Below are positions 11,080 through 45,135 of a stretch of DNA of 64,000 nucleotides, piece after piece. Source of the DNA: an uncultured Chloroflexia bacterium (GTDB lineage Bacteria > Chloroflexota > Limnocylindria > Limnocylindrales > CSP1-4); NCBI GenBank assembly GCA_963718085.1, contig CAVQYA010000001.1, positions 196,811 through 260,810 of the forward strand. The letters run 5' to 3'. The stretch's first letter is position 1, and each line of letters opens with the position of its first letter. The notes beneath the pieces were generated by a model. That model did no database searches. It was not told where the DNA came from and saw nothing but the letters and a program-made list of their open reading frames with translations. The position numbers and the translations under genes are program-made.

Positions 11080-11388
11080 CTACGGATTCGTGAGGATGCC
11101 GTGCCGGCCGATCCGCCGCCATCGGACGGCGAGGTCGCCGTCGATCCGGATCCACTCGAACGTCGCCCGCCCGTCCGGTCCCGAGAAGCTCCACGTCATC
11201 TCGAATACTCCCGGGGCGCCCTCAACGTCCCTGACCCGCAGCGACGACGGCCAGGCGGTGGCCGGGTCCGCGGCGTAGCGCTCGCAGGCGGCGACGAACG
11301 TCGGGAGAACCTCCGCGACGAGTCGGCGCTCGCTCTCCGAGAGACGGCGTCTGTCCGCCCGGAAGGCGTCGGTGACCTCGAACTTCAC
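11080..11388 (-). CDS. Putative toxin (102 aa, uncharacterized, possibly RelE/ParE-like) of an AbrB-type TA pair
   Basis: Its ATG overlaps the upstream antitoxin stop (ATGA). It is small and basic (…WRRIGRHGIL). I do not recognise the family. Confidence 0.4.
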   Translation of the reverse strand: MKFEVTDAFRADRRRLSESERRLVAEVLPTFVAACERYAADPATAWPSSLRVRDVEGAPGVFEMTWSFSGPDGRATFEWIRIDGDLAVRWRRIGRHGILTNP

Positions 11389-11683
11389 CGGGCGGCGTCA
11401 TCGGCGGCGAAGAGAGCGTCCAGCCCTTCCAGCCCGTCGACAACGGTCGTGCGTCCGGCCGCGACGTCCGCATCCGCTTCGCGCTCCATCGTCTGCCATC
11501 GATCGGTCCAGAACCACGCCTGGTCCGCGGGTACCGCGACGACGGGGACCAGCTCGATGCGACCGTCCTCGCCCTCGACCAGCTTGATCTGGGCGTTGGC
11601 CTGATCGAGGTGGAGGCGACGACGCAGATCGGCGGGAGGGCGATGGTGCCGCGGGACTGGATGGTCAACAGGTGCGTCTTCAT
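11385..11683 (-). CDS. AbrB/MazE/SpoVT-type antitoxin, apparently frameshifted (−1) at ~11630-11633
   Basis: The N-terminus MKTHLLTIQSRGTIALPP is in one frame. …DLRRRLHLDQANAQIKLVEGEDGRIELVPVV continues in another frame. Together they reconstruct the canonical swapped-hairpin barrel motif. One missing G in CCGCCG|ATC joins them. Confidence 0.6.
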
Positions 11684-11901
11684 GCGTTGCAGCATAGCAG
11701 TATTGCGGCGCTCGTCCGGATACGTGCCCGGATCGGAGCCAGCCGGATCGACAGGAGCGTGGCAGCAAGAGGGTCGGATCTGCGAACCACTTCGCTCGGG
11801 CGTTGCCCCTGCGTCGACGACTGGCCGATGGTCACGCCCGATCGGCCGGGCGGACACGTTCGGCAGGTGACTCCGAGCCAGGCGCGCCGTAGGCTTGATC
11901 A

Positions 11902-12930
11902 ATGAGCGAGGGAGATCGGCCTCACGGACCTTCAGGCGAGGTCGTCGTCTACGAAACGCCCGATGGGCGCGCGCGGGTCGAAGTCGTCGTCGGGGACGAG
12001 ACGGTCTGGCTGACCCAGAGGCAGATGGCGGACCTGTTCGACGACCACGATCCGACAACGTCGGCTTGCACATCGAGAACGTCGTTCGCCGAGGGAGAGC
12101 TCGACGGAGGGGGCAACTATCGAGGATTCCTCGTAGTTCGATCCGAGGGAGGTCGTCAGGTCCGCCGGCGCATCCAGCACTACAACCTCGACGTGATCAT
12201 CTCCGTCGGCTACCGCGTCAAGTCCAGGCGCGGCACCCAGTTTCGAATCTGGGCGACGAACACGGTGCGGGATCACCTCATCCAGGGCTTCACGCTCAAC
12301 GAGAAGCGCCTGCTGGCGAGAGGCGTGGAGTTCGACCAGGCCGTCGCCCTGCTGTCATCGACGCTGCGCAACCAGGAGCTCGTCACCGACGAGGGCCAGG
12401 CCGTCCTCGAGGTGGTCCAGCGGTACGCGCGCTCGTGGCGGATGCTGCGCGCCTTCGACGAGGACCAGCTCTCGTCCGCTCCTGACGGGACCGCCGTCCC
12501 GATCGCCTCACTCGACATCGGGTCGGCGCGGGCGACGATCCGCACCCTTCGCGACGACCTGGTCGCGCGCGGCGAGAACCCGGGGATGCTCGGCCAGGAG
12601 CGCGGCGACGCCCTCGAGTCGGTCCTGCTCAACATCGAGCAGACGTTCGGCGGCGAGGCGCTCTACCCGACGATCGAGTCGCGGGCCGCGCACCTGCTCT
12701 ACTTCGTCATCAAGGACCACCCACTCTCCGACGGCAACAAGCGGACGGGGTCGCTGCTGTTCCTCGACTACCTGCGCCGGAACAGCGCGCTGCTGGGGTC
12801 CAACGGCCGGCCGCGTTTCTCGGACACCTCGCTCGTCGCGCTCGCGCTGCTCGTCGCCGAGAGCAAGGCGTCGCACAAGGATCTCGTGGTCCGCCTGATC
12901 CTCAACCTGCTGGCCGAGGATCGCCCGTAG
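11902..12930 (+). CDS. RhuM-family N-terminal domain fused to a Fic/DOC domain (HPLSDGNKRTG)
   Basis: The RhuM core (…SEGGRQV…YNLDVIISVGYRVKS.RGTQFRIWAT) is followed by a Fic motif HPxxDGNxR. A compensating −1/+1 indel pair at ~12052-12086 converts the expected …DNVGLHIENVFAEGEL into …DPTTSACTSRTSFAEGEL. Confidence 0.7.
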   Translation: MSEGDRPHGPSGEVVVYETPDGRARVEVVVGDETVWLTQRQMADLFDDHDPTTSACTSRTSFAEGELDGGGNYRGFLVVRSEGGRQVRRRIQHYNLDVIISVGYRVKSRRGTQFRIWATNTVRDHLIQGFTLNEKRLLARGVEFDQAVALLSSTLRNQELVTDEGQAVLEVVQRYARSWRMLRAFDEDQLSSAPDGTAVPIASLDIGSARATIRTLRDDLVARGENPGMLGQERGDALESVLLNIEQTFGGEALYPTIESRAAHLLYFVIKDHPLSDGNKRTGSLLFLDYLRRNSALLGSNGRPRFSDTSLVALALLVAESKASHKDLVVRLILNLLAEDRP

Positions 12931-13025
12931 CGGTCACCACTCTGGGACGAGGCGCGATGCCGCGGTTCGAGGCCGACGCCACCGTCGGCCCCCCCGCGCC
13001 GACCCACCGTCGGCCCCCCTCGCGC

Positions 13026-13121
13026 GTATTCCGAGAAGGAGTACCGGGGCTTCAACGGCCCCGACGCCACCGTCGACGTCCCCCGTATTCCGAGAAGGAG
13101 TACCGGGACCTCAATCGTCCC
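13026..13121. promoter_or_regulatory. Two tandem copies (58 bp apart) of a conserved 19-nt box GTATTCCGAGAAGGAGTAC followed by a hairpin with a compensatory base-pair change
   Basis: Copy 1 stem is CGGGGC…GCCCCG (13045-13063). Copy 2 stem is CGGGAC…GTCCCG (13103-13121). G→A on one arm is matched by C→T on the other. They lie in the 840-bp intergenic region upstream of ligA. Confidence 0.5.
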
Positions 13122-13190
13122 GGTGTGATCCCGATTTGGCCGTGGCCTGTCGGATCAGGGCCGCGCCGATGCTGTGGAGGTCTGCCGCGC

Positions 13191-13580
13191 GCGTCACGAC
13201 CTGGGCGGCCACGCGCCCGGGTGCTTGCTAGACCTACTCGGCATACCGCGGTCCGGGGACCCAGCGACTGCTCGGCCTTCCTGCCGCTCGAGATCCGTCG
13301 CGACATCGAGAGCCGCGCGGACGAGCCGCGATGCCGCGCCCCTCGCTCCGGGCGGCGCAGCCGATCGGCCATGGTCTGCCTCGCGCGTCACGACCTGGGC
13401 GGCCACGCGCCCGGGTGCTTGCTAGACCTACTCGGCATACCGCGGTCCGGGGACCGAGCGACTGCTCGGCCTTCCTGCCGCTCGAGATCCGTCGCGACAT
13501 CGAGAGCCGCGCGGACGAGCCGCGATGCCGCGCCCCTCGCTCCGGGCGGCGCAGCCGATCGGCCATGGTCTGCCTCGCGC
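13191..13580. repeat. Direct repeat of a 195-bp unit ×2 (about 99% identical)
   Basis: Seen directly. GCGCGTCACGACCTGGGCGG recurs at 13191 and 13386. The whole unit is repeated. Confidence 0.9.
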
Positions 13581-13715
13581 CGCCCAGCGCACCCGATCGA
13601 CCATGGTCTGCCTCGCGCGGCCCAGCGCACCCGATCGACCATGGTCTGCCTCGCGCGGCCCAGCGCAGCCGATCGACCATGGTCTGCCTCGCGCGGCCCG
13701 TCGCAGCCGATCGGC
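13563..13715. repeat. Four tandem 38-bp units, each carrying the perfect palindrome GACCATGGTC next to CGATCG
   Basis: CCATGGTC recurs at 13563, 13601, 13639 and 13677. The array directly precedes the ligA start. It has no spacer-like unique sequence, so it is not a CRISPR. Confidence 0.85.
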
Positions 13716-13770
13716 CGCGGTCCCTCTCGCTCCGCGCGGCCCGGCCGATCGATCGATAGACTCCGGATCG

Positions 13771-16603
<2,833 letters not shown>

Positions 16604-16614
16604 GGGTGCCGGCA

Positions 16615-16642
16615 GTCACCGGTGCGAACCGGCACCGGTGAC
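16615..16642 (+). terminator. Terminator-like hairpin after ligA: perfect 11-bp inverted repeat GTCACCGGTGC-GAACCG-GCACCGGTGAC
   Basis: Seen directly. It lies 12 nt after the ligA stop. Confidence 0.55.
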
Positions 16643-16699
16643 TCGTGGAACTTTCGTACTGGCCTTGCAGTACGGGGTGGACCCTCGTACCATCCGCCC

Positions 16700-17386
16700 A
16701 TGGATACCTCCGGGAAGACGGGTCCTCGTCGGGTTGTCCAGGCCGGACAGGGACTTGTCGAATACGCACTTATCCTGGCTCTTATAGCAGTAGTCGCCAT
16801 TTCTGGAACTCTCTTCCTGGGCAAGGAGATTTCCAAGGTACTGGCGAACATGGGGTCAAGCGTCGGCGGGGTCGCCGGTGTGACGCAGACGGGGACGCAG
16901 ACCACCACGACGACGACGTCCGCCGAAGCCTGCAGGGCGGCCGGTAAGTACTGGTATCAGGACGCCTGCCACGACCAGAAGGGTGCCGCGAGCAACTACA
17001 AGACCGCCGACGACTGCTGGGCGGTCGGCTACTGGTGGCGTGAGAGTTCGAATGTTGTCCAATGCCGTGACAACAAGGGCTCGGCGGACGACTACTTGAA
17101 CCAGGCCGACTGCCAGAGGCCAACAGTCGGCTTCCACTGGTACAACGGCGACTGCCACGACAACTCTCCCGACGCGTGGGACATCAACAACAGCGGTGAC
17201 TGCGCGGCGTACAGCTTCTCCTGGTGGACCCTGGGAAAGTCCGCCCCCCCAAACGACGGCTGTCACCCGACCAGTCAGCTCGCCTATTCCTCCACCATGA
17301 ACAGGACGACCTGCGAGGCCAACGACTGGTGGTGGCATGACGTGTCCTGGCCCTCCAGCGACCACTGTGATTCCTCCCATCCCTAG
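16700..17386 (+). CDS. Flp/Fap-type pilin-like protein with a ~190-aa C-terminal Cys/Trp-rich repeat domain
   Basis: Leader MDTSGKTGPRRVVQAG, then G|QGLVEYALILALIAVVAISG (Flp motif with Glu +5, Tyr +6, hydrophobic helix). Five Cys-bracketed W/Y/D/N-rich modules follow. GC is visibly lower than the flanks. Confidence 0.6.
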   Translation: MDTSGKTGPRRVVQAGQGLVEYALILALIAVVAISGTLFLGKEISKVLANMGSSVGGVAGVTQTGTQTTTTTTSAEACRAAGKYWYQDACHDQKGAASNYKTADDCWAVGYWWRESSNVVQCRDNKGSADDYLNQADCQRPTVGFHWYNGDCHDNSPDAWDINNSGDCAAYSFSWWTLGKSAPPNDGCHPTSQLAYSSTMNRTTCEANDWWWHDVSWPSSDHCDSSHP

Positions 17387-17880
17387 TAGGGAGCGGCGTG
17401 ACCCGGCCCCGGAGCCCGGGTCCGCCATCATCGGGAGATCGCAACACTCTCGCGGGCCGGCGTAGAGCCCGTCGCGAACCCGGCCCGCCCGGCACCCACT
17501 GAGATCGAGCTGGTCCTCCCCGAGGGCCAGCTCCTTCGATTCCGGGCGGACTTGCGGTCACTGCCCGCCTCAATACGCAGGCCGGTCGTCCCGCCGGCCC
17601 CTGCGTCCTGGGTTCGAGGGCATTCGCCCGCCACCTTCCGACCGCGCGGCCCCGGCCGACCTCGGAGGACGAGTCGGCGCCCGCCCCGCTGGGCATCAGG
17701 CCTGACCCGCAGCCAATTCGGCGTCGGGGACCGGACCGATCACGGCGACCACGTCTCTCCGGCGAGCGACCGTGATCGGACTCAGGTCACAGGCTGAGGC
17801 GGAATTCACCCCCCGTCGTTCCATCTTCAACAGCCGACGGAGTGCCGATCGCGGCCCGAGAGGGCGATCGGCGGCCCCTG

Positions 17881-19098
17881 TCATCCGACGTAGTTGCCTT
17901 CCAGGAAGAGCGCCGTCATCAGTCCCAGGAACGTGAGCGACAGCAGCAGCCAACCCCTGTGGAAGAGTGGCCGGCGACCGGCGATCGCGAGCACAACGAA
18001 GCAGGGAAACAGGACAAGGAGGTACCTCATCGTCGACATCAGGGGCCAGGCCGTCTGCTGAGTCAGGGTGAGAGCGAGCTGCGGGACGACGTACAGCGAG
18101 TAGCTCGCGGGCAGGCGCCGGAGGCCGGCAATCGCCAGGGCGGTGAATCCGACGAGTGCCAGGGCGTTCAATAGGGTGATGGGGTCGTCGTGCCGGAATG
18201 CCCAGTCCAACGCCTGACCGATGACGTCCCAGGGAAGGCGCGCTCCGGTAGAGGCCCAGGTTGCGTGCGAGTCGAAGTAGGGCTGATCCAGCACGACGAC
18301 CGTATACGCAACGTACGAGAGGTAGCCGACCGCCGGGCTGGCCATCGCGATTGCCGGTGTCAGGTTGGGTCGGCCCAGGCGAGGGGTGCCCGGCTGCCGC
18401 GCCCGCCAGTAGTCGCGGAGCGCGACCGCTGCCTCCCACCCGATTGGCAGAACGAGCAGCAGTCCCTGCGGTCGGGTCAGCGCGGCGACCAGGCCGGCCA
18501 CGGCGGCGAGCCCCCAGCGATGACGTCGCGCCCCCACGATTGCCCACACCGCGCCGGCCAGGAAGAGCGCCTCCGTGAACGGCGCGAAGAAGAAGAAGGC
18601 AACCGGGAATACCGCGACGTAGAGGACGGCTCGGTCTGCCGTGGCGCCATCGAGATCTTCACGTACCAGTTGCCGGAGACCGGTGAGTCCGAGCACGAAG
18701 GCAACCGCGTTGACCACCAGGCCGGCCAGCGGGATGTCGCCGCCCAGGACGATCGATGCGACACGCATGAGGAACGGCAGGAGCGGAAAGAAGTTGGTGG
18801 AGGCCGTGCCTGCCTCGTAGCCGTAGGCCGCGATCTTCGCGTACCAGCAGGCGTCCCAGTGCTGCCAGACCCCGACGAGCGGGAAGGCGATCCCGCGATC
18901 GGCGAGCGGCGGGAAGGTTGTCCACCCGTTGATGACCAGGTCCGAGTTGCACGGGCCCGGCACCAGACCCTTCATCATGAGGAAGCCGGCGATCAACCCG
19001 AGGCCGATCCGGAGGACGAACCACAGCCGCACGGCGGCGGCAAGTCCCTCCGGAAGGCGATCGACACGTCGCCTGATCCTACCGATGAGGGCCTTCAT
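17881..19098 (-). CDS. Polytopic membrane glycosyltransferase (PIG-V / DUF2029-like mannosyltransferase family)
   Basis: About 10 predicted TM segments, with the DACWY and NFFPLLP motifs typical of actinobacterial PIG-V-like mannosyltransferases. The family call is tentative. Confidence 0.5.
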   Translation of the reverse strand: MKALIGRIRRRVDRLPEGLAAAVRLWFVLRIGLGLIAGFLMMKGLVPGPCNSDLVINGWTTFPPLADRGIAFPLVGVWQHWDACWYAKIAAYGYEAGTASTNFFPLLPFLMRVASIVLGGDIPLAGLVVNAVAFVLGLTGLRQLVREDLDGATADRAVLYVAVFPVAFFFFAPFTEALFLAGAVWAIVGARRHRWGLAAVAGLVAALTRPQGLLLVLPIGWEAAVALRDYWRARQPGTPRLGRPNLTPAIAMASPAVGYLSYVAYTVVVLDQPYFDSHATWASTGARLPWDVIGQALDWAFRHDDPITLLNALALVGFTALAIAGLRRLPASYSLYVVPQLALTLTQQTAWPLMSTMRYLLVLFPCFVVLAIAGRRPLFHRGWLLLSLTFLGLMTALFLEGNYVG

Positions 19099-19532
19099 CT
19101 AGCCGCCTGAGCACGGTTTGGGGCAGGCGAGGGGACCGCCCGAGAGGCGGTCCCCTCGAGCATCGCGGCGCCCGAGGTGAAATGGCCGTCGAGCGTTCGC
19201 ACGTGGTGCTCCTGGTTCGGAATCGCCTGCATTCCGTCTCTCGCGTTCCTGGACGCGCGGATGCGAGAGTAGCCCAGAACCGGGGGTGAATCGGCGCGGA
19301 ACTCCCTTCCGGCGGTCGGCGGTTCCCTCAGCTCGGCCGCGCCACGAGGTGGGAGTCCGTGGCCGCGCGTGGATCTCCCGCGCAGGCGGAACAGCCAGTC
19401 CGGTACGCTTGGCCGCGTTGCCTGCCGCCCGGGAGACCCATCGGTGCCGATCGCCGCACGGACGCAGGGAAGGCACCTGCCCTCGCCGCCGACCGGGCAG
19501 TCGGCGGGCGACCCGGCTTGTCGAGCGGTGAC

Positions 19533-20889
19533 ATGACGGCCACGCCGACCTCGGGCCTCGTCGACGACCGGGGCGCGACAGGGGCTGATCCCGGCGAGCC
19601 GGCCGTCCCGTCGTCGCGGCGGCGTCGCCTGTTCGAGCGCATCCGGCGGAGCCTGGGCGATCCGAGGGTGCTCGTTCGCGCTGCTGCTGATCGCGGCCCT
19701 GATCGTGCGGATCGCGTGGCTGACGGTGCCCCAGGGGTCGCTCATCTTCGACGAGTCCTACTACGTCAACGCGGCGCGGGTGCTGCTCGGCTGGACCGTC
19801 CCGGCCGACGCTCCGTACGCGGGCGCACCCATCGGGCTGGATCCCAACAGCGAGCATCCGCCGCTCGGGAAGCTGCTGATGGCGCTGTCGATGGCCGTCT
19901 TCGGCGACAACGGCCTGGGCTGGCGGCTGCCCAGCGTCATCGCCGGGATGATCGCGCTGGTCGCGGTGTTCGGGATCGTTCGCGCCACCGGGGAGTCCGC
20001 GCGACTCGCGCTTCTCGCCGTGGCCTTCCTCGCCTTCGAGAACCTCACGCTGGTCCACGGCCGGATCGGGACCCTGGACATGCTGGTCCTCGCGCCGATT
20101 CTGGTGGGCGCCTGGCTGGCCCTGCGCGGCCGGTGGGCCGCGGCGGGAGCGGCAACCGGTCTCGGGATGCTGATGAAGCTGACCGCGCTGTACGGCCTGC
20201 TGGCGCTGCTGATCATGCTGGCAGTCGCGCTCTGGGTGACGTGGCGTCGACAGCGCCGTCTGCGATTCCCGGATCTGCGCCCGGCCGCGATGGCGCTGAT
20301 CGCTTTCTCGATCGTCACCATCGGAGGCCTGTGGCTGCTCGACATGCGGTTCTCGAGCTACGCCAACCCGGTCGAGCACCTGCAGCACATGATCCAGTAC
20401 GGGGCCAGCCTGGCCCGGGGTGCGGCCGAGCCGGGGGTCTGCGCCGGCGCAGACAGTTCCCCGCTGCAGTGGCTCTTCAACGAGTGCGAGATGACCTACC
20501 TGCGCGTGAACGAGACGGTGGCGAGCGGAGAAGTGATCGTGTCTGTCCGCTCCACGATCGACTTCCGCGGCGCGATGAACCCGATCCTGATCGGCTCCCT
20601 GCCCGCCGCGTTCGCGGTCGCCGGCTGGCTCGCCTGGAAGCGGCGCAGCCGCCTGGCCGGCTGGAGCCTCGTCTGGGCGGCCGCCAACTACCTTCCGTAC
20701 GTGGCGATGGCGCTCGTCTCGCAGCGGGTGACGTACATCTTCTACTTCCTGCCGGTCGTCCCGGCTCTCGCCGTGGCGGCCGCCCTCCTCCTGCGTCGCT
20801 GGCGCCTGCCGAGGTTCGTGACCGTCGCGTACGTGGCCCTCTACATCGTCGGCTTCGCGGCGTACTTCCCGTTCCGCCAGATCCCGTGA
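19533..20889 (+). CDS. Protein O-mannosyltransferase / PMT-family (GT39-like) membrane glycosyltransferase, with an apparent +1 frameshift at ~19673
   Basis: …LIFDESYYVNAARVLLGW…PIGLDPNSEHPPLGKLLMAL is the PMT signature. The N-terminal 46 aa from ATG 19533 are in the adjacent frame. One extra G in CTCGTTCGCG joins them. Confidence 0.65.
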
Positions 20890-21176
20890 CCCTGGGCGTG
20901 CCGTGCATTCGCCCGAGGCGCGGCCGGCCACCATTCGCAAGCGTCTGGCTCGAAGCGGCCGCGCTCGCCTGCCTGTTCGCCCGGCGACGCGTGGAGCGGC
21001 CTGACGGGACTCAACCAGCGATCGGCCGGTCGGCGCGCTGCGTGCCTGGTCTCCTTCACCGACCTCGATCACGCATGTGCGTCGTGTTCGAGATCGATGC
21101 GCTGCTTGTCCACCCACTCCACGGCCTTGTCGAGCGTCGCCCCATAGCCGGGCGAGGTCGTTGAACTCCTCCCGAT

Positions 21177-21680
21177 TCACGCCCCCGCCCTCCGGGCTCC
21201 CCACCACTCGATGAACCCGTTCGTGATTCGCGCGCGCTCCTCGTCCGAGAGGAGGTCGCTGAAGGGTGACGTGTTCCGGAGGACGGCCGCCTCCTCGTCG
21301 TGCCGGGTGAGGGTCGCCATGACGGCCTCGGCGCCCTGCTCGAGCACCCGGGCCCACCGGTCGGCGAACCAGGCGAGGTGGTTGTCGCCGCCCATCTCGG
21401 CGAGCCTGTTCGCGGCCAGATCCCGGGCGCGGCCCCAGTCGAGCGCGACATGGGCGGCCTGGACGCGGCCCGACCACAGTTGCAGGAGGTGGGACCCGTC
21501 GACGGAGCGCCCGTGCTCGCGGCCCGCCAGGTAGGCGTCCACCGTTTCGCGCCGGACGCGGCGGTGCTTGCCGACCCGGAAGGAGGCCATCCGGCCGGCA
21601 TCGCAGAGGTCGACGACGTGCTGGCGGGACGCGCCGATCAGGCGCGCGACCTCGCCAGTCGATAGCAGCCCGTTATTCAC
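21177..21680 (-). CDS. Excisionase/MerR-like HTH (HTH_17-type) protein with an uncharacterized C-terminal domain, copy A
   Basis: LLSTGEVARLIGASRQHVVDLCDAGRMASFRVGKHRRVRRETVDAYL is an excisionase-family HTH. GTG start with GGAGTG upstream. It is divergent from abiEi. Confidence 0.5.
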   Translation of the reverse strand: MNNGLLSTGEVARLIGASRQHVVDLCDAGRMASFRVGKHRRVRRETVDAYLAGREHGRSVDGSHLLQLWSGRVQAAHVALDWGRARDLAANRLAEMGGDNHLAWFADRWARVLEQGAEAVMATLTRHDEEAAVLRNTSPFSDLLSDEERARITNGFIEWWGARRAGA

Positions 21681-21777
21681 CGCAACCACTCCAAGCACCG
21701 TAACCACAACGGTTCGCGCCAATCTTGCCCCAGCCGCAGGGCGCTGTCGAGGGAGAGTGCCACTCGCCGACATCGGA
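21197..21777. repeat. Copy A of a ~585-bp direct repeat, ~98% identical to 25397-25980
   Basis: About 12 mismatches. The differences cluster at the HTH gene start. The repeat contains most of the HTH regulator gene plus its upstream region. Confidence 0.9.
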
Positions 21778-22601
21778 TGACTCGCAGGATCCTTGCGCCG
21801 AGCATGTCATTCATGCATGATGTCCACATGAGTCTTGATAACCTGCATGAACGACAGGTCATCTCGATCGCCAAGACCGAGCAGGCGATGAGCTGGCTGG
21901 TCGCGCACGGACCTCTCGTCGTCGACCCGCCGCTGCCAGCGTGGATCACGGACCGCCTCGTGACCGCGCAGCGGGTCATGCGTCTGCGACGCGGCGTGTT
22001 CCTGGTTCCCGGCGACGATGGACGCCTGCCATCGCTCCCCCGGGCGATGGATCTCCTTGATCCGGCGGGCTACGTGACCGGGCACGGGGCCCTCGCCGCA
22101 CAGGGGCTCAACGATCAGGACGTGTCGCACTGGTGGGCCGCCGCCGGTCGCCGTCAGGCCGACATCTCCTACGGTCTCTACCGCGCCCACTTCGTCTTCT
22201 CACCCGAGTCGGCGCGAGTCGGTCAGCAACACGTCGTCCCGTACGAAGGCGACCGCGTTCGCATGGCGACGCCGACCCAGGCCCTCGTCGATGAGGCACG
22301 CCTCATCCCCTTCGGCTTCGACTGGGTCGAGACGGGCCGGGTTCTGCGCAACGCGGTGGAGATCGGGCGGACCGCCGAGACCGGCGTCCTGGAGCTGCTC
22401 TCGGCGCAGCCTTCACTGGCCGCCACCCGGCGGCTCGGCCTGCTCTTCGAGCTGGTCCGCGGGGCGCCGGATCCCCGGCTTCTCGCCGCTGCGCGACGGA
22501 ACCTGACCGTCTCGCGGATCGTTGGTGACGAGGAAATCGATGAGACCTGGCGGATCACCCTGCCGCATGACCGGGCGCGGATCGCTCGAGGGATGAAGTG
22601 A
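21777..22601 (+). CDS. abiEi: AbiEi-family antitoxin / transcriptional regulator (type IV TA, abortive infection)
   Basis: About 274 aa, with an N-terminal wHTH and an …RLRRGVFLVP motif. Its stop overlaps the abiEii GTG (GTGA). Confidence 0.6.
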   Translation: MTRRILAPSMSFMHDVHMSLDNLHERQVISIAKTEQAMSWLVAHGPLVVDPPLPAWITDRLVTAQRVMRLRRGVFLVPGDDGRLPSLPRAMDLLDPAGYVTGHGALAAQGLNDQDVSHWWAAAGRRQADISYGLYRAHFVFSPESARVGQQHVVPYEGDRVRMATPTQALVDEARLIPFGFDWVETGRVLRNAVEIGRTAETGVLELLSAQPSLAATRRLGLLFELVRGAPDPRLLAAARRNLTVSRIVGDEEIDETWRITLPHDRARIARGMK

Positions 22602-23426
22602 CGAGCCGTAGGCGCGAGGACGCGCCCAACCTGCGAAATCGGCGTACGCCGCGCGGCGGCAGAGGCCAACGTCGCGGTCAACGAATACGAACGCGCCATC
22701 GTGCTCGGCCAGGTCGCCGAGCTGCTCGCGCTCCACCCGCAGATCGGGGGCCGGATCGCCTTCAAGGGCGGGGCGGTCATGACACTCTTCGACCAGAGCC
22801 CCCGCCTGTCGCGCGACCTCGACGCCGTCCTCGTTTCCGGCGGCGGGATCACGGAGAAGATGGTCCGCGAGGCGCTGGGTACGCCGTCCGCGAAGAAGGT
22901 GGTCGTGCGGATCGACCGCTTCGTCACTGTCGATGGGGACGCGATCAGGTTCCCTCTCGTGGTCTGTCGCCCCTTCTCCGGACAGGGCCAGATCGATGTT
23001 CAGATCAGCATCAACTGGAGCAGCCCGCTCCTGTGCGACCCCGAGTTCGGAGAGTTCGAGGTCGGCGGACGCAAGGTGACGCTGCGACTGATGGCTCGGC
23101 GCGAGCGGCTGGCGGAGAAGGTACGGGCGTTCCTCGACCGCGGCGAGGATCGTGACGCCTTCGATCTCTCCCACTACGTCGAGCGAGGACTCCGGGCTGA
23201 CGAGTGGAAGGATTTGCCGCGTCTCGTGTCCGAGAAGTTGCGCGTGGATCCGGACATACCGGCGGGGACGGATCTGCACGCGCTCTTCGACCGACAGCTC
23301 GAGGAGATCGGGCTGGTGTGGGGCACCCGCGGCGGATTGACGCTGATGCGCGCCCGTCCCTCCTGGGACGTCGTGCGTCCGCGGATTGCCAGCCTCCGGC
23401 GCTACGTTCCCGCCAGCAAGGCCTGA
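22598..23426 (+). CDS. abiEii: AbiEii/AbiGii-family nucleotidyltransferase toxin, with an apparent +1 frameshift at ~22655
   Basis: The AFKGGAVMTLFDQSPRLSRDLD motif is present. The N-terminal 19 codons from GTG 22598 (…APNLRNRR…) are in the adjacent frame. One extra G in GGCGGC joins them. Confidence 0.7.
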
Positions 23427-23554
23427 CTCCTTGCCTGCGCCGCGGCCGAGGGTCGATGCCGGCGACCCCGCGCCGCTCGGCGAGCTCCTGCGCCCGCCGC
23501 GCCCGCCGCGCCCGCCGCCCCGTGCCCGCCGCCCCGCGCCGCCCCCCGAGCCGC

Positions 23555-23835
23555 TTTCCTCGCTAATGCGTCGCCCCGTACCGCTATCCCGGAACCGGGA
23601 CCGCGGACGGCGCCGGCGCGCCGCCCGCGCGGCGTCCGGGCCCACGTGGAGCCGGTCATGGCGGGCGATTCCCTCGCCAGTGCGTCGCCGGCGGAGCATT
23701 GGCGAGGATCGTGGCGCCCGGCCCGGGTTCCACGCCGCCGTCGGGGGGCGCCCTGCGCGGCCAATCCCGGATAGTGGTACCGGGACGAACATTGGCGAGG
23801 ATCGCCGGCGTGGGCGGGGCGAGAACGCTCGCTGC
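23555..23835. repeat. Palindromic repeat element, family B copy 1 (termini TTCCTCGCTAATGCGTCGCC … GGCGGAGCATTGGCGAGGA)
   Basis: Internal inverted repeats are present. It is about 80% identical to 27785-27960. Confidence 0.7.
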
Positions 23836-23842
23836 GACCTTC

Positions 23843-25255
23843 CTACGACCCGAGCAGCCATGCGAGGAGCGCGGACGGGACGGCGAGTATGTCCCCGTCG
23901 AGTGCGAGCGCGCGGCGGGTAGCGACAACACCACCGACACCTCGAGCCGCGATCGCCCGGCTGGCACCGCGCCAGCCCGTGTCCACGTACTTGGACTCGA
24001 AGCCGAGCCCCAACCGCGAGCCGACGAAGTCGATCTCGGTCCTCGAGTTCGGGTTCACCCAGTACCGGACCTCGGCCATCTCGACGAATGCGCCCTGCAT
24101 CTCGCGCTCGATCGAGCGATGCATGGCGAGCGCCATCTGCTGCTCGCTGACGTTGGCGACCGCCGGCTCGACCGCACCTGGATCCACGAGGTGAGGCAGT
24201 CGCGCCAGTAGCGGGTCCGTGAAGTAGAACTTCCGCTGTGCCTTCACGTTCGGCCGGCCGTCGTTGTCCTTGTAGCAGCGGAAACCGAGGAATGCGGTCA
24301 CGAGCTCGGTTATGCGTGCGTCGGCCTGCTCGTTGTCGGTGAAGCCCACGTCGCGGGCCAGGTCGGAGAGGTTGATCGGGCCTGAGAGTGAGATTGCCAA
24401 TCGCTCGATGAAGGCGAGAGCCTCCGGTGGCGTGGTCCTCATCGAGCGGAACGCTTCTCCTCGGACGACATTCCAGAGGTCGCGAACGAAGGCTGGGGCG
24501 ACGTCGCCGGTGTCCATGAACGAGGAGACAGCCTTCGGGTACCCGCCGACGTGAAGGTAGTTCTCCCAGGCGTCGGCGAGCTGGGGGATGAACACCTGGA
24601 GCTCCTCGAGGAGCGGCGGCGCGTCGGAGAACACGTCCCGCGGCCGCAAAGGCGGGATGGAGGGGACATTGGCGTCCGCGCCCGTCACGGCGCAAAAGGA
24701 GCGGAACGACATCGGGAGCAGGAGGCGATCGCCCGCATCGGCCGGCTCGCCGTGGCGGCCGGCCAGGTTGGCGACTCCGTCCTGGATCCCGGCCGACGAT
24801 GACCCGGTGAGGACGACACAGTCCTCGCGGAATGCCGTCGTGTCCCGCTCGTCCTTGACGATCGCGTGCCAGTTGTCGATCGCGGTGATCTCGTCGATGA
24901 ACCAGTAGCGCGGCGCTGCGATGGCGGGAAAGCGGCTCCGCCCGAGGTGGAGCATCCGCCGGAGGTCATCGCCCCGGAGCCCGTCACACGAGAAGTAGAG
25001 GATGGAGCGCGGGTTGGCGGCCCCTGACACGGCCGCCGCGACGGCTCGCTTCAGCTCGACACTCTTGCCGACGCGGCGTTGACCGAGCAGCAGATAGAGC
25101 CCGTTGGGCCGGATGTCAGCCAGAGGCGCCGGCTCGTACACGATGGAGGCTGCACGGACCGCCTTGAGGTCCGGATCGTCCCGCTCCCAGCCGGCCGGAT
25201 CGCGCCACCAGGTGCACTTTTCGGAGAGCCGGGCGAAGAGTTGCGCGTCGTTCAT
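23843..25255 (-). CDS. AAA+ ATPase, COG1373 type (AAA_14 plus DUF4143)
   Basis: Walker A LLLGQRRVGKS, a Walker B-like WFIDE, and a C-terminal DUF4143-like region. It lies 31 bp downstream of HTH copy B on the same strand. Confidence 0.7.
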   Translation of the reverse strand: MNDAQLFARLSEKCTWWRDPAGWERDDPDLKAVRAASIVYEPAPLADIRPNGLYLLLGQRRVGKSVELKRAVAAAVSGAANPRSILYFSCDGLRGDDLRRMLHLGRSRFPAIAAPRYWFIDEITAIDNWHAIVKDERDTTAFREDCVVLTGSSSAGIQDGVANLAGRHGEPADAGDRLLLPMSFRSFCAVTGADANVPSIPPLRPRDVFSDAPPLLEELQVFIPQLADAWENYLHVGGYPKAVSSFMDTGDVAPAFVRDLWNVVRGEAFRSMRTTPPEALAFIERLAISLSGPINLSDLARDVGFTDNEQADARITELVTAFLGFRCYKDNDGRPNVKAQRKFYFTDPLLARLPHLVDPGAVEPAVANVSEQQMALAMHRSIEREMQGAFVEMAEVRYWVNPNSRTEIDFVGSRLGLGFESKYVDTGWRGASRAIAARGVGGVVATRRALALDGDILAVPSALLAWLLGS

Positions 25256-25286
25256 GGATCCGCCAACGGGAGTCTGGCCCTGGCTG

Positions 25287-25880
25287 TCATGTCGGCAGAC
25301 AGGGTATCTCTTTTGCCGTCATGTCGGCAGACAGGGTATCTCTTGTGCCGTCAGGCAAGATCATAGCGACTGAATCCGCACCGTCAAGGGGCCGGTCTCC
25401 CCACCAGTCGATGAACGCGTTCGTGATTCGCGCGCGCTCGTCGTCCGAGAGGAGGTCGATGAAGGGTGACGTGTTCCGGAGGACGGCCGCCTCCTCGTCG
25501 TGCCGGGTGAGGGTCGCCATGACGGCCTCGGCGCCCTGCTCGAGCACCCGGGCCCACCGGTCGGCGAACCAGGCGAGGTGGTTGTCGCCGCGCATCTCGG
25601 CGAGCCTGTTCGCGGCCAGATCCCGGGCGCGGCCCCAGTCGAGCGCGACATGGGCGGCCTGGACGCGGCCCGACCACAGTTGCAGGAGGTGGGACCCGTC
25701 GACGGAGCGCCCGTGCTCGCGGCCCGCCAGGTAGGCGTCCACCGTTTCGCGCCGGACGCGGCGGTGCTTGCCGACCCGGAAGGAGGCCATCCGGCCGGCG
25801 TCGCAGAGGTCGACGACGTGCTGGCGGGACGCGCCGATCAGGCGCGCGACCTCGCCAGTCGATAGCAGCTCAGCAATCAC
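25287..25880 (-). CDS. Excisionase/MerR-like HTH protein, copy B (variant N-terminus VIAELL… and a longer C-terminus)
   Basis: Same as copy A inside the repeat. The 3' end lies outside the repeat and encodes a different tail. Confidence 0.5.
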   Translation of the reverse strand: MIAELLSTGEVARLIGASRQHVVDLCDAGRMASFRVGKHRRVRRETVDAYLAGREHGRSVDGSHLLQLWSGRVQAAHVALDWGRARDLAANRLAEMRGDNHLAWFADRWARVLEQGAEAVMATLTRHDEEAAVLRNTSPFIDLLSDDERARITNAFIDWWGDRPLDGADSVAMILPDGTRDTLSADMTAKEIPCLPT

Positions 25881-25980
25881 CGCAACCACTCCAAGCACCG
25901 TAACCACAACGGTTCGCGCCAATCTTGCCCCAGCCGCAGGGCGCTGTCGAGGGAGAGTGCCACTCGCCGACAGGGCGGGG
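25397..25980. repeat. Copy B of the ~585-bp direct repeat
   Basis: See copy A. Confidence 0.9.
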
Positions 25981-26208
25981 CGCCCGCCGGTTCGGAGGGT
26001 GGCGCAGAATGAGCCGCGACTACGAGGAGAGCGGCGCGCTGTGGCGCTCGTACCTCGAGCAGGCACGATCGCGGGCCGGAGCGCTTGCCGCCCACCTGCG
26101 ACCACGGTGACCAACCGCGGGGCGCGGTGGGCCCCGCGCCGCCCCCGAGCCGCCCGACCCCGCGCCACCGCCCCGCCGCGACCCGCGCCGGCGCTCGGGT
26201 CCGACGTC

Positions 26209-27486
26209 CTATGGACCGAGAAGGGCAGCCGGGACGACCCCGATCCCGTCTGGTCGTCGGTAGGCGTAGGGGCCCGTTGACACGATGATGGCGTCGAGCA
26301 GGTCGGCACCGATCCGATCCCGGAGCCAGAGGAGGTGCTTGACATCATCGTCGCCGATTGTCTGGGCGAGCTTCACCTCGACAGCCACCACGCGACGGTC
26401 GGCGCGTTCGACGACCAGGTCGACCTCACGGTCTCCATTCTGCGTTCGGAAGTGACCGACCCGCGCCTCGGCTGCCTGGGCGTAGACGCGAACGATCAAG
26501 GTCACGAGCGATTCGTACAGGGCGCCGAAAAGAGTCCCGTCGCGTGGCCCGAGCGGCCCAGCCCCGGTCCCGTCGAGCAACGCGCCGACGGCGACACCTC
26601 GGAGTCGCGCGGCGAGGCCAGGGTCAACGAGGTGGTGCTTCGGCGACTGGATGAGCCTCGAGAGGTCGTTCCCCTGGGGGTTCCACGCCGGCAGCGGCTC
26701 GATCAACCAGAGGCGCTCGAGGGTGTCGAGCCAATGCAGGACCGTGACCTTCGCCGGCTTCTCGGCATGCCCGGCCGTCGAGGCATCGCGGATCTTCTCG
26801 TAGGACGTCGTCGAGCTGATTGCGCAGGCGTAGGCCGCGATCCAGCGCCGGAGAGCGGCATGATTGCGAATGGCGAGTCCCCCCAGGTCCCGAACATCCG
26901 TGTCGACGATTCGCTCGACGTAGCCGTCCAGCTGGGCGCGGATTGCACGCTCGGGAAGGTCTCGGAGGCCGGGGAAGCCCGACGCCACGATCTCGTGAGC
27001 GTATTGCTCGGCGGCCACGGTGGTCTCGCCGTCGAGTGTCGGTTTCAGCCCGGTCAGGAGATCGGCCAGGCTCACCGACGGCACCCCGACTCCGCGTTCA
27101 GCGAGGGTCATCGGGCGCATGCGGAGCGAGATGATCCGTCCCGCGCCCGTGTGGGTTGGCGGGTTCGCGGGTGACGCGGACCCTGTGAGGAGGAACTGGC
27201 CGCCGACGGGATTTGCATCCACGGCCCGGCGAACGACATCCCAGGTCTCGCGCATGAGTTGCCACTCATCGACGAGGACCGGGCGAGGCGCAGTCACGAT
27301 CCGCTCGGGATCTGCCTCGAGCACCGCGCGCACCGCTGGCTGGTCGAGTCGGAAGGACGTCGCGGCGCGAGCAGTCGCGGTCTCGGTCTTGCCGACGGCG
27401 CGGGCACCTTCGATGGCGATCGCCGCAACCCCGGGCATGAGCTCGTCGAGCTCGTTGTCCACGATGCGTCGCCGATAGTCCGCCAT
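26209..27486 (-). CDS. Second AAA+ ATPase, COG1373 type (AAA_14 plus DUF4143)
   Basis: Walker A IEGARAVGKTE, Walker B VLVDEWQ. Start at the internal ATG 27486 (MADYRRRIV…) with GAGGAA upstream. Confidence 0.7.
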   Translation of the reverse strand: MADYRRRIVDNELDELMPGVAAIAIEGARAVGKTETATARAATSFRLDQPAVRAVLEADPERIVTAPRPVLVDEWQLMRETWDVVRRAVDANPVGGQFLLTGSASPANPPTHTGAGRIISLRMRPMTLAERGVGVPSVSLADLLTGLKPTLDGETTVAAEQYAHEIVASGFPGLRDLPERAIRAQLDGYVERIVDTDVRDLGGLAIRNHAALRRWIAAYACAISSTTSYEKIRDASTAGHAEKPAKVTVLHWLDTLERLWLIEPLPAWNPQGNDLSRLIQSPKHHLVDPGLAARLRGVAVGALLDGTGAGPLGPRDGTLFGALYESLVTLIVRVYAQAAEARVGHFRTQNGDREVDLVVERADRRVVAVEVKLAQTIGDDDVKHLLWLRDRIGADLLDAIIVSTGPYAYRRPDGIGVVPAALLGP

Positions 27487-27784
27487 CGATTCCTCGCCGT
27501 TCCGCTTGCAGGCCCGCCCGTGCCTGACGACCTCCTGTCCCGGTGGCTCGTGAACTGTACCATTCGCAGGCAGCGCACCATACCATCCGCAGATGTCGCG
27601 CGATACTCTCGGCAGCATTCGGCGCGGGTCAATCGGGGCGGCGGACTTGGCGGACTCGGCGAGCGGCGCGCTCCCGCGCCGCGGCCCCCGCGCCGTCGTC
27701 CCCTCGCCCCGAGCCGCCGTCCTCGCCCTGCCCGTCCCGCGCCGCCACGCCTGCCGCCCCCTCGCCCTCGCCCGTCGCGCCCTC

Positions 27785-27960
27785 GGCCCTTTTCCTCGCT
27801 AGTGCGTCGCCCTGTACCGTTAACCCGGAAACGGGGCCGCGGACGGCGCCCGTGCGGCGCCCGGGCCCACGTGGAGCCGGTCGCGGCCGGCGATTCCCTC
27901 GGCAGTGCGTCGCCTGCGGAGCGTTAGCGAGGATCGCGGGACCCGGGCCGGGGTTCCACG
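27785..27960. repeat. Palindromic repeat element, family B copy 2
   Basis: TTCCTCGCTAGTGCGTCGCC … GGAGCGTTAGCGAGGA, with the same internal architecture as copy 1. Confidence 0.7.
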
Positions 27961-28015
27961 CCGTCGCCAACCTCGAGAAGATGTGCCGAACGTGCCCTCA
28001 GCCACTGGTGACCCG

Positions 28016-28348
28016 ATGACGATGCACGCCGGCCTGGCGAGTGGCCGCTGGTGGACGCTCACGCTCGCCGAGCAGCTCGGCAACGCCGGGGCCGACGTCG
28101 GCCGCGCGATCCGGGCCAGGCGGGATGGCGACCAGGAGCGTTTCGACGCGGCCCTCGGTCGGGCGCTCGAGCTGCTCGACCTGACCCTCGCGGATCCGCG
28201 CTGGCGCGGCCCTCGCCTTCGCGAGATCGCGCGCACGCGGGAGGTCGTCTGCGACCTCCTGGTCGGGGACAACGTCTACGAGTCGACGCCCGAGTCGCTC
28301 GACGCCTACTTCCTCGCCTTCGCCATCGCGGCGCGACGCGACAGGTAG
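28016..28348 (+). CDS. Hypothetical protein (110 aa), convergent with abiEii-2
   Basis: ORF with ATG at 28016. No recognisable family. Confidence 0.35.
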   Translation: MTMHAGLASGRWWTLTLAEQLGNAGADVGRAIRARRDGDQERFDAALGRALELLDLTLADPRWRGPRLREIARTREVVCDLLVGDNVYESTPESLDAYFLAFAIAARRDR

Positions 28349-28397
28349 CGGGGGGCCCACTCTGGGCGCGCCAGGCCCCGACGTCCTCCTCGGCCGG

Positions 28398-29258
28398 CTA
28401 CGCCTGTGCGATTCTTCGGACGAGGTCGGCGACCCTTCCTGCGGCCACGTTCACGTCGGTGATCGGGAAGGCAGTGTCGCCCGCTACGCGTGCAAACGCC
28501 TCGCGCCAGCCTGGAAACACGGTGACCACCGGCGGCCAGGCCTGCTTGCCCCGCAGCGAGAAGACCTCCTCGCACGCCGCACGGACCTGCGACCAGTTGC
28601 GGCCACCGATCAGCTCCTCGAGCAGCAGGAGGTCGATGAGGTCCCGGAACCGGTCGTTCTCCTTGTGCTCGAGGATCTCGGTGCATGCGTGGAGCTTCTG
28701 GGCAACCTGGTGGCGAACCGGGAGGCAGGGGACGTCGCCCTGCGTCTCGAGGCCGAAGACCGACAGGTCTGGCGCGGGCGGGACGTAATCGATCCCGACG
28801 GGGTTGCCGGAGTCGCCTTCGGCAGGGGACACCTCGAGCGCCACTGTGCCCCAGGGCCTGGTTCCGTAGCGGATCCTGAGCATGATCCGCAGGGCCCCCG
28901 TGGGGCCGATCGGCTCAGGTCGGCCGGCCGCCACGACGAACTCGCCGATCGGGTGCCGCCTGGTCTCGTCGAGCACGTCCCGCAGGCTTGCCAGGTCCTG
29001 CCGGAAGGCGGCGTCGTAGTCCCTGGAGGCACGGGCCCGGCTCCCGAATCGCAGCTCCATGGCAACGCCGCCCTTGAGAACGAAGAGCGGCACCTTCTCC
29101 TCGTCGATCAATTGCGACAGGACGGCGGCCACGACCATGAATGAGAGGCTCCGGCGCGCCCGGTCGACCGCAAGACCGTCGGCGCGGGCCTTGGCGAGGA
29201 CCCACTGCTCGAGCGTCCTCGCGGTCCGCGGAGGGCCAGGTTTCGGGAAACCGGGCAT
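28398..29258 (-). CDS. abiEii: Second AbiEii-family nucleotidyltransferase toxin
   Basis: FVLKGGVAMELRFGSRARASRDYD motif. ATG 29258 overlaps the upstream abiEi stop by 1 nt. The ORF-track N-terminal 198 aa is read-through. Confidence 0.7.
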   Translation of the reverse strand: MPGFPKPGPPRTARTLEQWVLAKARADGLAVDRARRSLSFMVVAAVLSQLIDEEKVPLFVLKGGVAMELRFGSRARASRDYDAAFRQDLASLRDVLDETRRHPIGEFVVAAGRPEPIGPTGALRIMLRIRYGTRPWGTVALEVSPAEGDSGNPVGIDYVPPAPDLSVFGLETQGDVPCLPVRHQVAQKLHACTEILEHKENDRFRDLIDLLLLEELIGGRNWSQVRAACEEVFSLRGKQAWPPVVTVFPGWREAFARVAGDTAFPITDVNVAAGRVADLVRRIAQA

Positions 29259-29836
29259 CAGATCGCTGCCGCGGCTGTCAGCTGGCGGAGCCGCTGGGCC
29301 AGGAGCGCCCTCTCGATCGCCTGCTCGTCCCGCGTCGACAGGAGGCCTCGCCGCGCGGCGGCTCCGCGGGCTTCGTCGATGAATCGTCGCCCGACGTGCG
29401 TCTCGATGCCGTCGATGATTGCGCGAGCCGGAGTGACGATCGCCAGGCCCTCGTGCCAGGTGACGTCGTCGTCGAGGTCGAGATCGCCCCGATGGATCGT
29501 CAACCATGCCGGCAGGTCCCTGCGGATGCGGAGACGCCGCGTGACCGTTACGTGGATCGTGGCCGGGTTGATGTCGCACAGGTCGTAGAGGTCGAGGGCC
29601 GTCTCGTGGCTCAGGACCGCGCCGGGGACGCGCAGGAGAGCCTCCTGGTGCTGCTCGAGCGGATCCCCGGCAAGCTCCGGCACGCGATAGACGCCGCGTG
29701 CGATGCGCTCGAGGACCCCGCGGTGCGCGAGCTGAACGAGCGTGAGCCTCGTTCCGCCGACCGCGAGCGCGTCCGCAGGCGTTAGGAGACCGTGCTGCTC
29801 GGTCGCGAGGGGCAGCAGCCGCCGGTACATGGTCAT
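29258..29836 (-). CDS. abiEi: Second AbiEi-family antitoxin (short, 192 aa)
   Basis: N-terminal …HGLLTPADALAVGGTRLTLVQLAHRGVLERIARGVYRV (AbiEi_4-like wHTH). Confidence 0.6.
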   Translation of the reverse strand: MTMYRRLLPLATEQHGLLTPADALAVGGTRLTLVQLAHRGVLERIARGVYRVPELAGDPLEQHQEALLRVPGAVLSHETALDLYDLCDINPATIHVTVTRRLRIRRDLPAWLTIHRGDLDLDDDVTWHEGLAIVTPARAIIDGIETHVGRRFIDEARGAAARRGLLSTRDEQAIERALLAQRLRQLTAAAAI

Positions 29837-29995
29837 GGCAGAAGTATAGCATTACGCGATACTATTGGCGACAACTCCTGCTTGCCGCGGCGGCCGTATC
29901 TCGAATTGGATCCGGTTGTTGGCCGGCAGCGATCGTCCGCGGTCGCGACGCCTTTCGGCGGGGCCACGATGCCCGCTCCGCTATCATCGAGGGCC

Positions 29996-30301
29996 ATGGG
30001 GACCCTCACCCGCGCCGATGTCGAGCATGTCGCGCACCTCGCCCGCCTCGGCCTGGCCGACGAGGAGCTGGCGCGCCTCGAGGGGCAGCTCAACCACATC
30101 CTCGAGCAGTACGAGATACTGGCGCGGCTCGACACGGACGCCATCCCGCCTACTGCCCAGACGATCGAACTGGAGAGCATCCTCCGCGAGGATGTCGCGC
30201 GGCCGTCGCTGAGCGTCGACGAGGCGCTCGCCAACGTGGCCGAGCGGTACGGCGACCACGTCGTGGTGCCCGCCATCCTCGGCGGCGAGCAGGCGAGCTG
30301 A
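29996..30301 (+). CDS. gatC: Glu-tRNA(Gln)/Asp-tRNA(Asn) amidotransferase subunit C
   Basis: LTRADVEHVAHLARLGL…EELARLEGQLNHILEQ is the GatC signature. Confidence 0.85.
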   Translation: MGTLTRADVEHVAHLARLGLADEELARLEGQLNHILEQYEILARLDTDAIPPTAQTIELESILREDVARPSLSVDEALANVAERYGDHVVVPAILGGEQAS

Positions 30302-44739: not shown

Positions 44740-45135
44740 CTCGTCATGTGATGACCGTGTGCGCATCGCCGGGGCATCAGCCGGGCAACGGGCCGCCGAC
44801 CGGCCGGGCGACGCGGCCCTCGGCCTCGTCATGTGATGACCGTGTGCGCATCGCCGGGGCATCAGCCGGGCAACGGGCCGCCGACCGGCCGGGCGACGCG
44901 GCCCTCGGCCTCGTCATGTGATGACCGTGTGCGCATCGCCAGGGCATCAGCCGGGCATGTGCACGTACACTTCTGGCGGCATGCCCGACGCCGTCGCCGA
45001 GCGGACCGTCGCCGTCGCCGAGCAGCGCGCGTCGCTGGACGCCTGATGCGCGCTTGATGCGGACACGGTCATCACCTTTGGCCGGGGTTCCCCGGGAGCC
45101 ATGGCCATTCGGGGCCGTGATCCTCACGCGGCGCG
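44740..45135. mobile_element. Complex palindromic MITE/REP-like element, family A locus 2 (85-bp unit ×~2.6 plus inverted right core)
   Basis: CGTCATGTGATGACCGTGTGCGCATCGCCGGGGCATCAGCCGGG units. Right end CCTGATGCGCGCTTGATGCGGACACGGTCATCAC … GTGATCCTCACGCGGCG. It lies immediately upstream of gatB. Confidence 0.55.

Follow-up and report, generated by a model that had tools for sequence, protein, structure and literature searches.

Upstream of the ligase gene ligA, in a 64,000-nt stretch of Chloroflexota DNA (here called the window), lie two copies of a short sequence box, each followed by a hairpin. The locus raises the question of whether this pair is a structured RNA or operator that serves ligA, as an initial annotation had proposed, or came about in another way. 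The 19-nt box, GTATTCCGAGAAGGAGTAC, occurs exactly twice in the 64-kb window, both times on the plus strand (13026–13044 and 13085–13103). A fuzzy search of the window at up to 3–4 mismatches returned no further copy, and shuffles gave a chance expectation of 0 copies. The exact 19-mer at 13026 and 13085 bears out the claim of a box common to two sites; the spacing, put at 58 bp, is 59 nt from start to start, with a gap of 40 nt between the boxes. The features of the locus are compiled in Table 1.

The GC content of the box is 47% against a background of 72%. An inverted repeat had been noted within it, and the half-sites GTATTCC and GTACTCC do agree at 6 of 7 positions, 5 bp apart. For the plus strand of the box, the predicted fold is a GAGAA loop on a stem of 7 bp, one of them U.G (hairpin A), which is present in the MFE structure of all three contexts in which the box was found, namely the two window copies and a third copy on a metagenome contig (L038) described below. 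The single non-Watson-Crick position of hairpin A is U.G on the plus strand, which is sense to the preceding RhuM/Fic gene, and A.C on the minus strand. Behind each box there is a hairpin (B1 and B2) with the paired G to A and C to T difference that had been reported. Folding energies were compared with those of shuffled sequences on both strands, and the plus strand was further below the shuffles than the minus strand in each set (z of −3.1, −1.9 and −3.6 versus −0.7, −1.7 and −1.2).

Table 1. Positions of the features discussed in the text (window coordinates).
Feature	Position	Strand	Description and basis
Degenerate copy of the first 20 nt of ligA	11829..11848	+	ATGGTCACGCCCGATCGGCC; putative left island junction; L038/ligA three-way alignment, BLAST
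RhuM/Fic/DOC-family gene, 342 aa	11902..12930	+	Pfam PF13310 and PF02661, weak TIGR01550 match, clear GC3 signal, homologues
25-nt tandem repeat, x2.1	12972..13014	+	GCCGAC..GTCGGC hairpin twice, with a C-run behind each
Unit 1 of the 59-nt duplication	13020..13078	+	C-rich lead-in, box, hairpin B1, CGACG..CGTCG hairpin; repeat finding, self-BLAST, pairwise alignment
Box copy 1	13026..13044	+	GTATTCCGAGAAGGAGTAC; imperfect 7-5-7 palindrome, predicted to form hairpin A
Hairpin B1	13045..13063	+	CGGGGC-ttcaacg-GCCCCG; MFE fold and pair counts
Unit 2 of the 59-nt duplication	13079..13137	+	most L038-like unit, 84% identity to L038 1228-1293
Box copy 2	13085..13103	+	same sequence as copy 1
Hairpin B2	13103..13123	+	CCGGGAC-ctcaatc-GTCCCGG; A:T pair where B1 has G:C
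194-nt unit, x2.1	13179..13580	+	99% identical; each with 15-aa remnant PSDCSAFLPLEIRRD
38-nt unit, x5.7	13535..13752	+	palindromes CGATCG and GACCATGGTC; array stops at conserved ligA leader
True ligA start	13771..13790	+	ATGACCACGCCCGACCTGCC; putative right island junction

The likeness of the two sites extends past the box over a whole unit of 59 nt. Positions 13020–13063 are 84% identical to 13079–13122, a hairpin in front of the box, CGACGCCACCGTCG, is also common to both units, and the overall identity of the two diverged units is about 77–84%. Because the similarity spans the whole unit, the two copies represent a tandem duplication: the two boxes are two units of a lineage-specific, head-to-tail 59-nt repeat. 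The initial annotation had argued for function rather than random duplication; what is found is a tandem duplication that is one of four arrays stacked in the same spacer.

This 840-nt spacer (12931–13770) is made almost wholly of tandem arrays and a gene remnant. Its four arrays (25-nt x2, 59-nt x2, 194-nt x2.1 and 38-nt x5.7) have internal identities that range from 77% to 99%. A third, degraded copy of the 25-nt repeat at 13062–13075 begins unit 2 of the 59-nt duplication, and elsewhere in the 64 kb the GCCGAC..GTCGGC palindrome has one match only, which is likely due to chance. The peptide PSDCSAFLPLEIRRD in the 194-nt array is the C-terminal remnant of a 166-aa gene (p166) found upstream of ligA in the relative L035. 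Some 38-nt units carry GGCCATGGTC or GGCCGCGGTC in place of GACCATGGTC, a self-complementary double change from CCATGG to CCGCGG is seen within this array, and 38-nt units are also present in L038 (positions 1–66). Arrays with a period of at least 15 amount to about 36 bases per kb in the window versus 3–6 per kb in the loci of the relatives L022, L023 and L035, and this region of the window's genome is unusually prone to tandem duplication. It is well supported that the 59-nt duplication is young to middle-aged and arose in a locus and a genome that duplicate readily. The sequence comes from a long-read assembly with frequent indel errors, which makes the lengths of the C-runs beside the boxes unreliable; the substitutions that define the unit copies far exceed the assembly error rate. 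The spacer is without codon-position signal (no GC3/GC2 periodicity at 12949–13848), whereas the flanking genes have a GC3 of 0.9–0.98 and a GC2 of about 0.45.

Which gene do the boxes belong to? The first box lies 96 nt after the stop codon of the RhuM/Fic gene (12930), and the boxes are 650–745 nt upstream of the ligA ATG (13771). By its LigA homologues the organism belongs with the Limnocylindria-like Chloroflexota. In relatives the core gene order is pcrA-ligA-gatCAB with a variable pcrA-ligA junction: upstream of ligA there is nothing but a 10-nt gap after pcrA in L037, an FMN_dh gene with a 12-nt gap in L023, FMN_dh and two reverse genes in L036, HTH_17, p166 and p71 in L035, and unrelated genes in L022. 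The pcrA-ligA junction is a hotspot for insertions in this lineage of Chloroflexota. In the window, 2.75 kb have been added between FMN_dh and ligA, consisting of two minus-strand ORFs, the RhuM/Fic gene and the repeat spacer. BLAST, fuzzy search and a covariance model all failed to detect the box upstream of ligA in these five relatives, where homology to the ligA upstream region begins just 17 nt before the ATG. The added 2.75 kb and the absence of the box in the relatives imply that the box is not a conserved ligA leader, and the regulator upstream of ligA that had been claimed finds no counterpart in the five relatives' ligA upstream regions. A TAGACTC motif 10–12 nt before the ligA ATG is conserved whatever the upstream gene (window 13754–13770; L023, L035, L036); in L023 the FMN_dh gene uses the TAG of this motif as its stop codon.

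Based on the left junction in L038 and the degenerate ligA start at 11829, the segment 11849–13770 (about 1.9 kb) appears to behave as a RhuM/Fic island that entered ligA 20 nt behind its start and has a direct copy of the ligA 5' end on either side. The two boxes lie in the non-coding tail of this RhuM/Fic island. The island flanks resemble an att-type duplication, and no recombinase or integrase was present among the scanned island ORFs. Between FMN_dh and the RhuM/Fic gene, two adjacent, overlapping small ORFs of 99 and 102 aa are found on the minus strand (11080–11684). The first of them starts with MKTHLLTIQSRGTIALPPDLRRRL and is AbrB/SpoVT-antitoxin-like by eye; searches against Pfam and NCBIfam gave no match for either.

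The closest homologue of the RhuM/Fic protein, P0122 (85% amino acid identity), is encoded on L038, a contig of 1458 nt from the metagenome JGI 3300063078 that provided the third copy. Its order is 38-nt units, ligA leader, ATGACCACGCCCGGCCTGCC (the first 20 nt of ligA), RhuM/Fic upstream region and gene, a single unit of the 59-nt type, and a reversed segment. The single unit is located 77 nt after the RhuM/Fic stop, and the copy number is therefore 2 in the window versus 1 in L038. A 22-nt core, CGTATTCCGAGAAGGAGTACCG, which around box copy 1 covers 13024–13045 and includes the flanks of the box, is identical at 22 of 22 positions in L038 and both window copies. By contrast, hairpin B of L038 (CCGAGAC..GCGCCGG) has three of six pairs broken and none compensated, and the upstream GC hairpin is also degraded. 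Only the near-palindromic CGTATTCCGAGAAGGAGTACCG is unchanged in all three known copies, whereas hairpin B, the GC hairpins and the 'compensatory' pair are local. As for the reversed segment, 100 nt of non-coding sequence (13172–13271, and also 13373–13450) are 89–91% identical to L038 1359–1458 in the opposite orientation relative to RhuM/Fic. This segment holds a 35-nt identical block, GCCCGGGTGCTTGCTAGACCTACTCGGCATACCGC, folds no better than shuffles, and has a boundary that coincides with the end of the L038 contig.

The argument for a functional RNA had been built on the compensatory change in hairpin B. With the L038 copy it fails, because the stem changes found there are uncompensated, an outcome that the annotation itself had named as refuting, and a covariation score calculated for the three sequences was matched by 338 of 500 shuffles. 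Hairpin A is invariant across the three copies from two genomes and thus offers no covariation for or against pairing. A general caution follows: a lone compensated pair that distinguishes two paralogous copies does not amount to covariation, and the addition of one homologue was enough to overturn the pairing argument.

Conservation of the core itself is a different matter. Between the local units a 24-nt run is identical though 16 of 70 aligned columns differ (P ~0.007; 0.016 for an ungapped 44-nt alignment), a run test that is post hoc, whereas the comparison with L038 is independent and was made on a pre-specified 22-nt block. Given 11 differences in the 67 surrounding aligned columns, 22 unchanged columns in L038 have a P of ~0.008; P is ~0.014 if the third-codon identity of the adjacent gene (82.4%) is taken as the neutral rate and ~0.08 with the overall gene identity (89%). 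The alignable non-coding flanks of L038 and the window are 60–84% identical. We regard this as moderate evidence, drawn from sequence comparison, that the core is either kept by selection or unusually immutable. Of the functional element that had been postulated, the part that stands is a box better conserved than its surroundings; hairpin B shows no sign of constraint.

Attempts to place the box in a known class were negative. Rfam gave no match over 13020–13130 at E values up to 10, and no match at gathering score in the whole window or in L038. A covariance model derived from the two copies found no further copy in the window or in eight related loci (best non-self E 0.12–0.3); fuzzy search and covariance model likewise yielded no dispersed copies of the box, hairpin B or the unit in the 64 kb. 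The exact 19-mer has eight matches in 185,579 species genomes and 13 in JGI metagenomes, all in unrelated coding sequences; many of these correspond to 'WYSEKEY' of rpsC, and none has the hairpin. Among viral contigs, a degenerate box+CCGGG pattern produced three chance matches, whereas the 22-mer of the core gave 0, as did a 32-mer from the conserved neighbouring block. BLAST of 12931–13180 against plasmids and phages gave no match.

Further candidates were rejected. CRISPR arrays consist of identical repeats separated by unrelated spacers and usually contain three or more repeats; here there are only two, and the sequences around the boxes are homologous to each other and thus not spacers. 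An integron attC site is an imperfect inverted repeat directly behind a cassette ORF, bounded by the core sites R'' (RYYYAAC) and R' (GTTRRRY), and no complementary RYYYAAC/GTTRRRY pair is present in 12931–13140 or in L038 1168–1350. Descent from a decayed copy of the ligA leader or of an att site was dismissed since local alignments were no better than those of shuffles (P 0.15–0.97).

We infer that the core serves the island, and not ligA, as a short cis element. The reading that we prefer, tentatively and as one possibility among several, is that of an RNA stem-loop in the 3' UTR of the RhuM/Fic gene. The core would be transcribed together with RhuM/Fic and would fold into the 7-bp stem with its GAGAA loop in the 3' untranslated region. 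There it might provide a signal for the 3' end, for stability or for processing, or bind a sequence-specific factor, and the 59-nt duplication would merely have doubled it. We favour the stem-loop because the U.G pair is on the sense strand, the element is placed just after the stop codon and far from any start, and the hairpin is predicted in three contexts. With 77–96 nt to the stop codon and more than 600 nt to any start further down, its location suits a 3' UTR more than it does an operator. The core is not a canonical terminator because it lacks a U-tract: a scan of 12700–14000 for intrinsic terminators found 0 sites, and the hairpins are followed by C/G-rich sequence. The box was absent behind the RhuM/Fic homologues of L027–L034, L039 and L040, in which homology stops at the stop codon. 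Since it is found neither behind the equally close L027/L028 homologue nor behind the more distant ones, RhuM/Fic does not need the box.

Almost as likely as the RNA reading is one in terms of double-stranded DNA, although by itself it, too, is improbable rather than probable. The palindrome may be bound by a dimeric protein of the island or its neighbours, as an operator, recombination site or partition site, with two sites 59 bp apart. Stem, loop and flanks are all invariant (22 of 22 positions, three copies), as would be expected for sequence-specific recognition, and the box combines dyad symmetry with a composition richer in AT than the background. HTH_17 and AbiEi-type regulators are encoded nearby, and beside the box L038 and the window differ by the inversion of the 100-nt segment. 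An operator would be at odds with a scan of 12700–14000 that found no sigma-70-like promoter and with the more than 600 nt that separate the box from the next start downstream; moreover, the RhuM/Fic upstream region does not contain a half-site, and the 59-bp spacing is out of helical phase. For recombination the scanned island ORFs include no recombinase, and the 5-bp spacer and odd total length would be atypical of a core site for a tyrosine or serine recombinase.

It is also conceivable, if rather unlikely, that the core has no function at all and that a junk unit was doubled by replication slippage, with the box the same in all copies because it is young or less mutable than its GC- and homopolymer-rich flanks. 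Four arrays and a remnant, with identities from 77% to 99%, indicate an ongoing process, and the difference in copy number between the window (2) and L038 (1) is in line with it. The paired G:C to A:T change would then be due to chance or to a single templated event (quasipalindrome template switch). A rough estimate of P for one compensated pair among seven differences is ~0.1, hairpin B is not kept in L038, and the neighbouring 38-nt array offers a second self-complementary double change (CCATGG to CCGCGG). Template switching has been documented to generate and preserve perfect hairpins when no selection acts on their pairs (PMC8794818), and would offer a mutational explanation for the paired change of hairpin B. 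More difficult to reconcile with neutrality is the pre-specified 22-nt block, which is unchanged in L038 (P ~0.013 at ~82% third-codon or non-coding identity) and the paralogous units, too, have their longest stretch of identity there. GC-to-AT mutation bias would, by our own estimate, cut the mutation rate of the box by just about one quarter, which likewise speaks against the neutral explanation.

It is tempting to go further, and we do so only as a long shot. CGTATTCCGAGAAGGAGTACCG might be a cis element not described before, belonging to a family of RhuM/Fic islands whose integration site is the 5' end of ligA in Limnocylindria-like Chloroflexota. It would serve either as a 3'-UTR stem-loop that controls the mRNA of the toxin-like gene or as a recognition site for an island-encoded protein, with the duplication as one case of an adaptive change in copy number.

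A coding origin, with the box as part or remnant of a coding sequence that reads YSEKEY in one frame, is very improbable. In its favour, a hand comparison of copy 2 with L038 counts 4 synonymous and 4 non-synonymous differences in the codons that come next, RDL(N/I)R(P/A)G.., and copy 2 is in frame with the C-terminal remnant of p166 at 13260–13304. However, there is no GC3/GC2 signal, the unit length of 59 nt is not a multiple of 3 and puts the two copies in different frames, and in L038 translation from the in-frame ATG would pass through the box in a different frame. A tblastn search with p166 matched its last 15 aa only. Nor does a 358-aa ORF (12957–14033) that covers the box have a Pfam match or a homologue among 5.8 billion proteins.

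Least credible, and largely refuted, is the initial proposal of a ligA riboregulator, attenuator or anti-SD element: the boxes share strand and upstream location with ligA, AAGGAG is partly sequestered within hairpin A, and 12990–13135 has a plus-strand folding z of −3.6, but they are 650–745 nt from the ATG in an inserted island, are absent from the ligA upstream regions of five relatives, have no Rfam match, and are followed in L038 by a broken hairpin B. An SD/anti-SD device, for which a start codon would be expected 5–10 nt behind the SD-like motif, was rejected in particular since none of the three copies has an ATG, GTG or TTG within 20 nt after AAGGAG and the spacer is without GC3 periodicity.

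The wider neighbourhood of ligA has peculiarities of its own. Relative to its homologues, the ligA gene (13771–16600) contains a 572-nt insertion (14161–14732) that is Pro/Ala/Glu-rich and internally repetitive; it begins after 'GLGLPPA', is followed by a 13-residue protein motif, and looks like a real, expanded linker. The ligA frame changes three times (at the insertion, near 15920 and near 16089), and frame changes are also present in pcrA (near 7095) and gatA (near 31540). They are more likely to be assembly indel errors than signs of pseudogenes. About 13 kb between ligA and gatC (16600–29996) are absent in relatives, in which the ligA-gatC gap measures 35–480 nt. The products encoded there are AbiEii and AbiEi (type IV TA), an AAA_14/DUF4143 ATPase, a PMT_2 glycosyltransferase and an HTH_17 protein, with a near-duplicate HTH region at 25725–25862; the region has the look of a defence or accessory island.

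Further downstream a dispersed element is present in two copies (~33680–34100 and ~44740–45130). Its left motif, TGATGACCGTGTGCGCATC, is the inverted repeat of the right motif, GATGCGG(C/A)CACGGTCATCA, and the conserved sequence continues beyond. The left end is tandemly duplicated at both sites (85 nt x2.1 and x2.8), and arrays of 16 nt x6, 11 nt x10 and 29 nt x3.9 adjoin the element. It may be MITE-like or a structured RNA; it has no Rfam match at gathering score.

Our analysis contributes to the interpretation of a feature whose general weight is small: the box pair is a local tandem duplication in a decaying accessory island and not a regulator of an essential ligase. The by-products, that is, the insertion hotspot, the apparent duplication of the ligA start by one island and a region with about ten times more tandem arrays than in relatives, may be more interesting than the box.

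How does the feature compare with known systems? With intrinsic terminators and stabilising stem-loops of 3' UTRs it has in common that sense-strand stem-loops occur within 100 nt of a stop codon. Unlike in terminators there is no U-tract, the weak, AT-richer hairpin is conserved while the strong GC hairpin B is not, and an efficient terminator at this place would cut ligA off from read-through. Operators of dimeric regulators (e.g. toxin-antitoxin systems) are likewise imperfect inverted repeats of about 19 bp, with an invariant sequence and a repeated site; the box, however, is not at a recognisable promoter or gene start. REP and BIME elements are short, GC-rich, imperfect palindromes just downstream of a gene that could form hairpins in the mRNA, as is the case here, but REPs are high-copy dispersed families, whereas no further box, hairpin B or unit occurs in the 64 kb. 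MITEs, too, are dispersed in many copies, and carry terminal inverted repeats and a target-site duplication. In quasipalindrome template switching (PMC8794818), paired changes on both arms keep complementarity, as in the G:C to A:T change of hairpin B and in CCATGG to CCGCGG. It is a mutational mechanism and not an element class, and is a candidate for the changes seen here.

The last comparison is with intergenic VNTRs such as those of the mycobacterial MIRU type. Here, only two diverged units are present, and within the 64-kb window they are not part of a dispersed family. MIRUs have overlapping small ORFs, of a kind that the 59-nt units do not contain. Shared with VNTRs are the intergenic location, units with lengths in the tens of bases that follow one another head to tail, a copy number that varies between related genomes (2 versus 1), and several arrays stacked at one locus. 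The feature is an intergenic tandem repeat specific to one lineage, in which no more than a small palindromic core is conserved.
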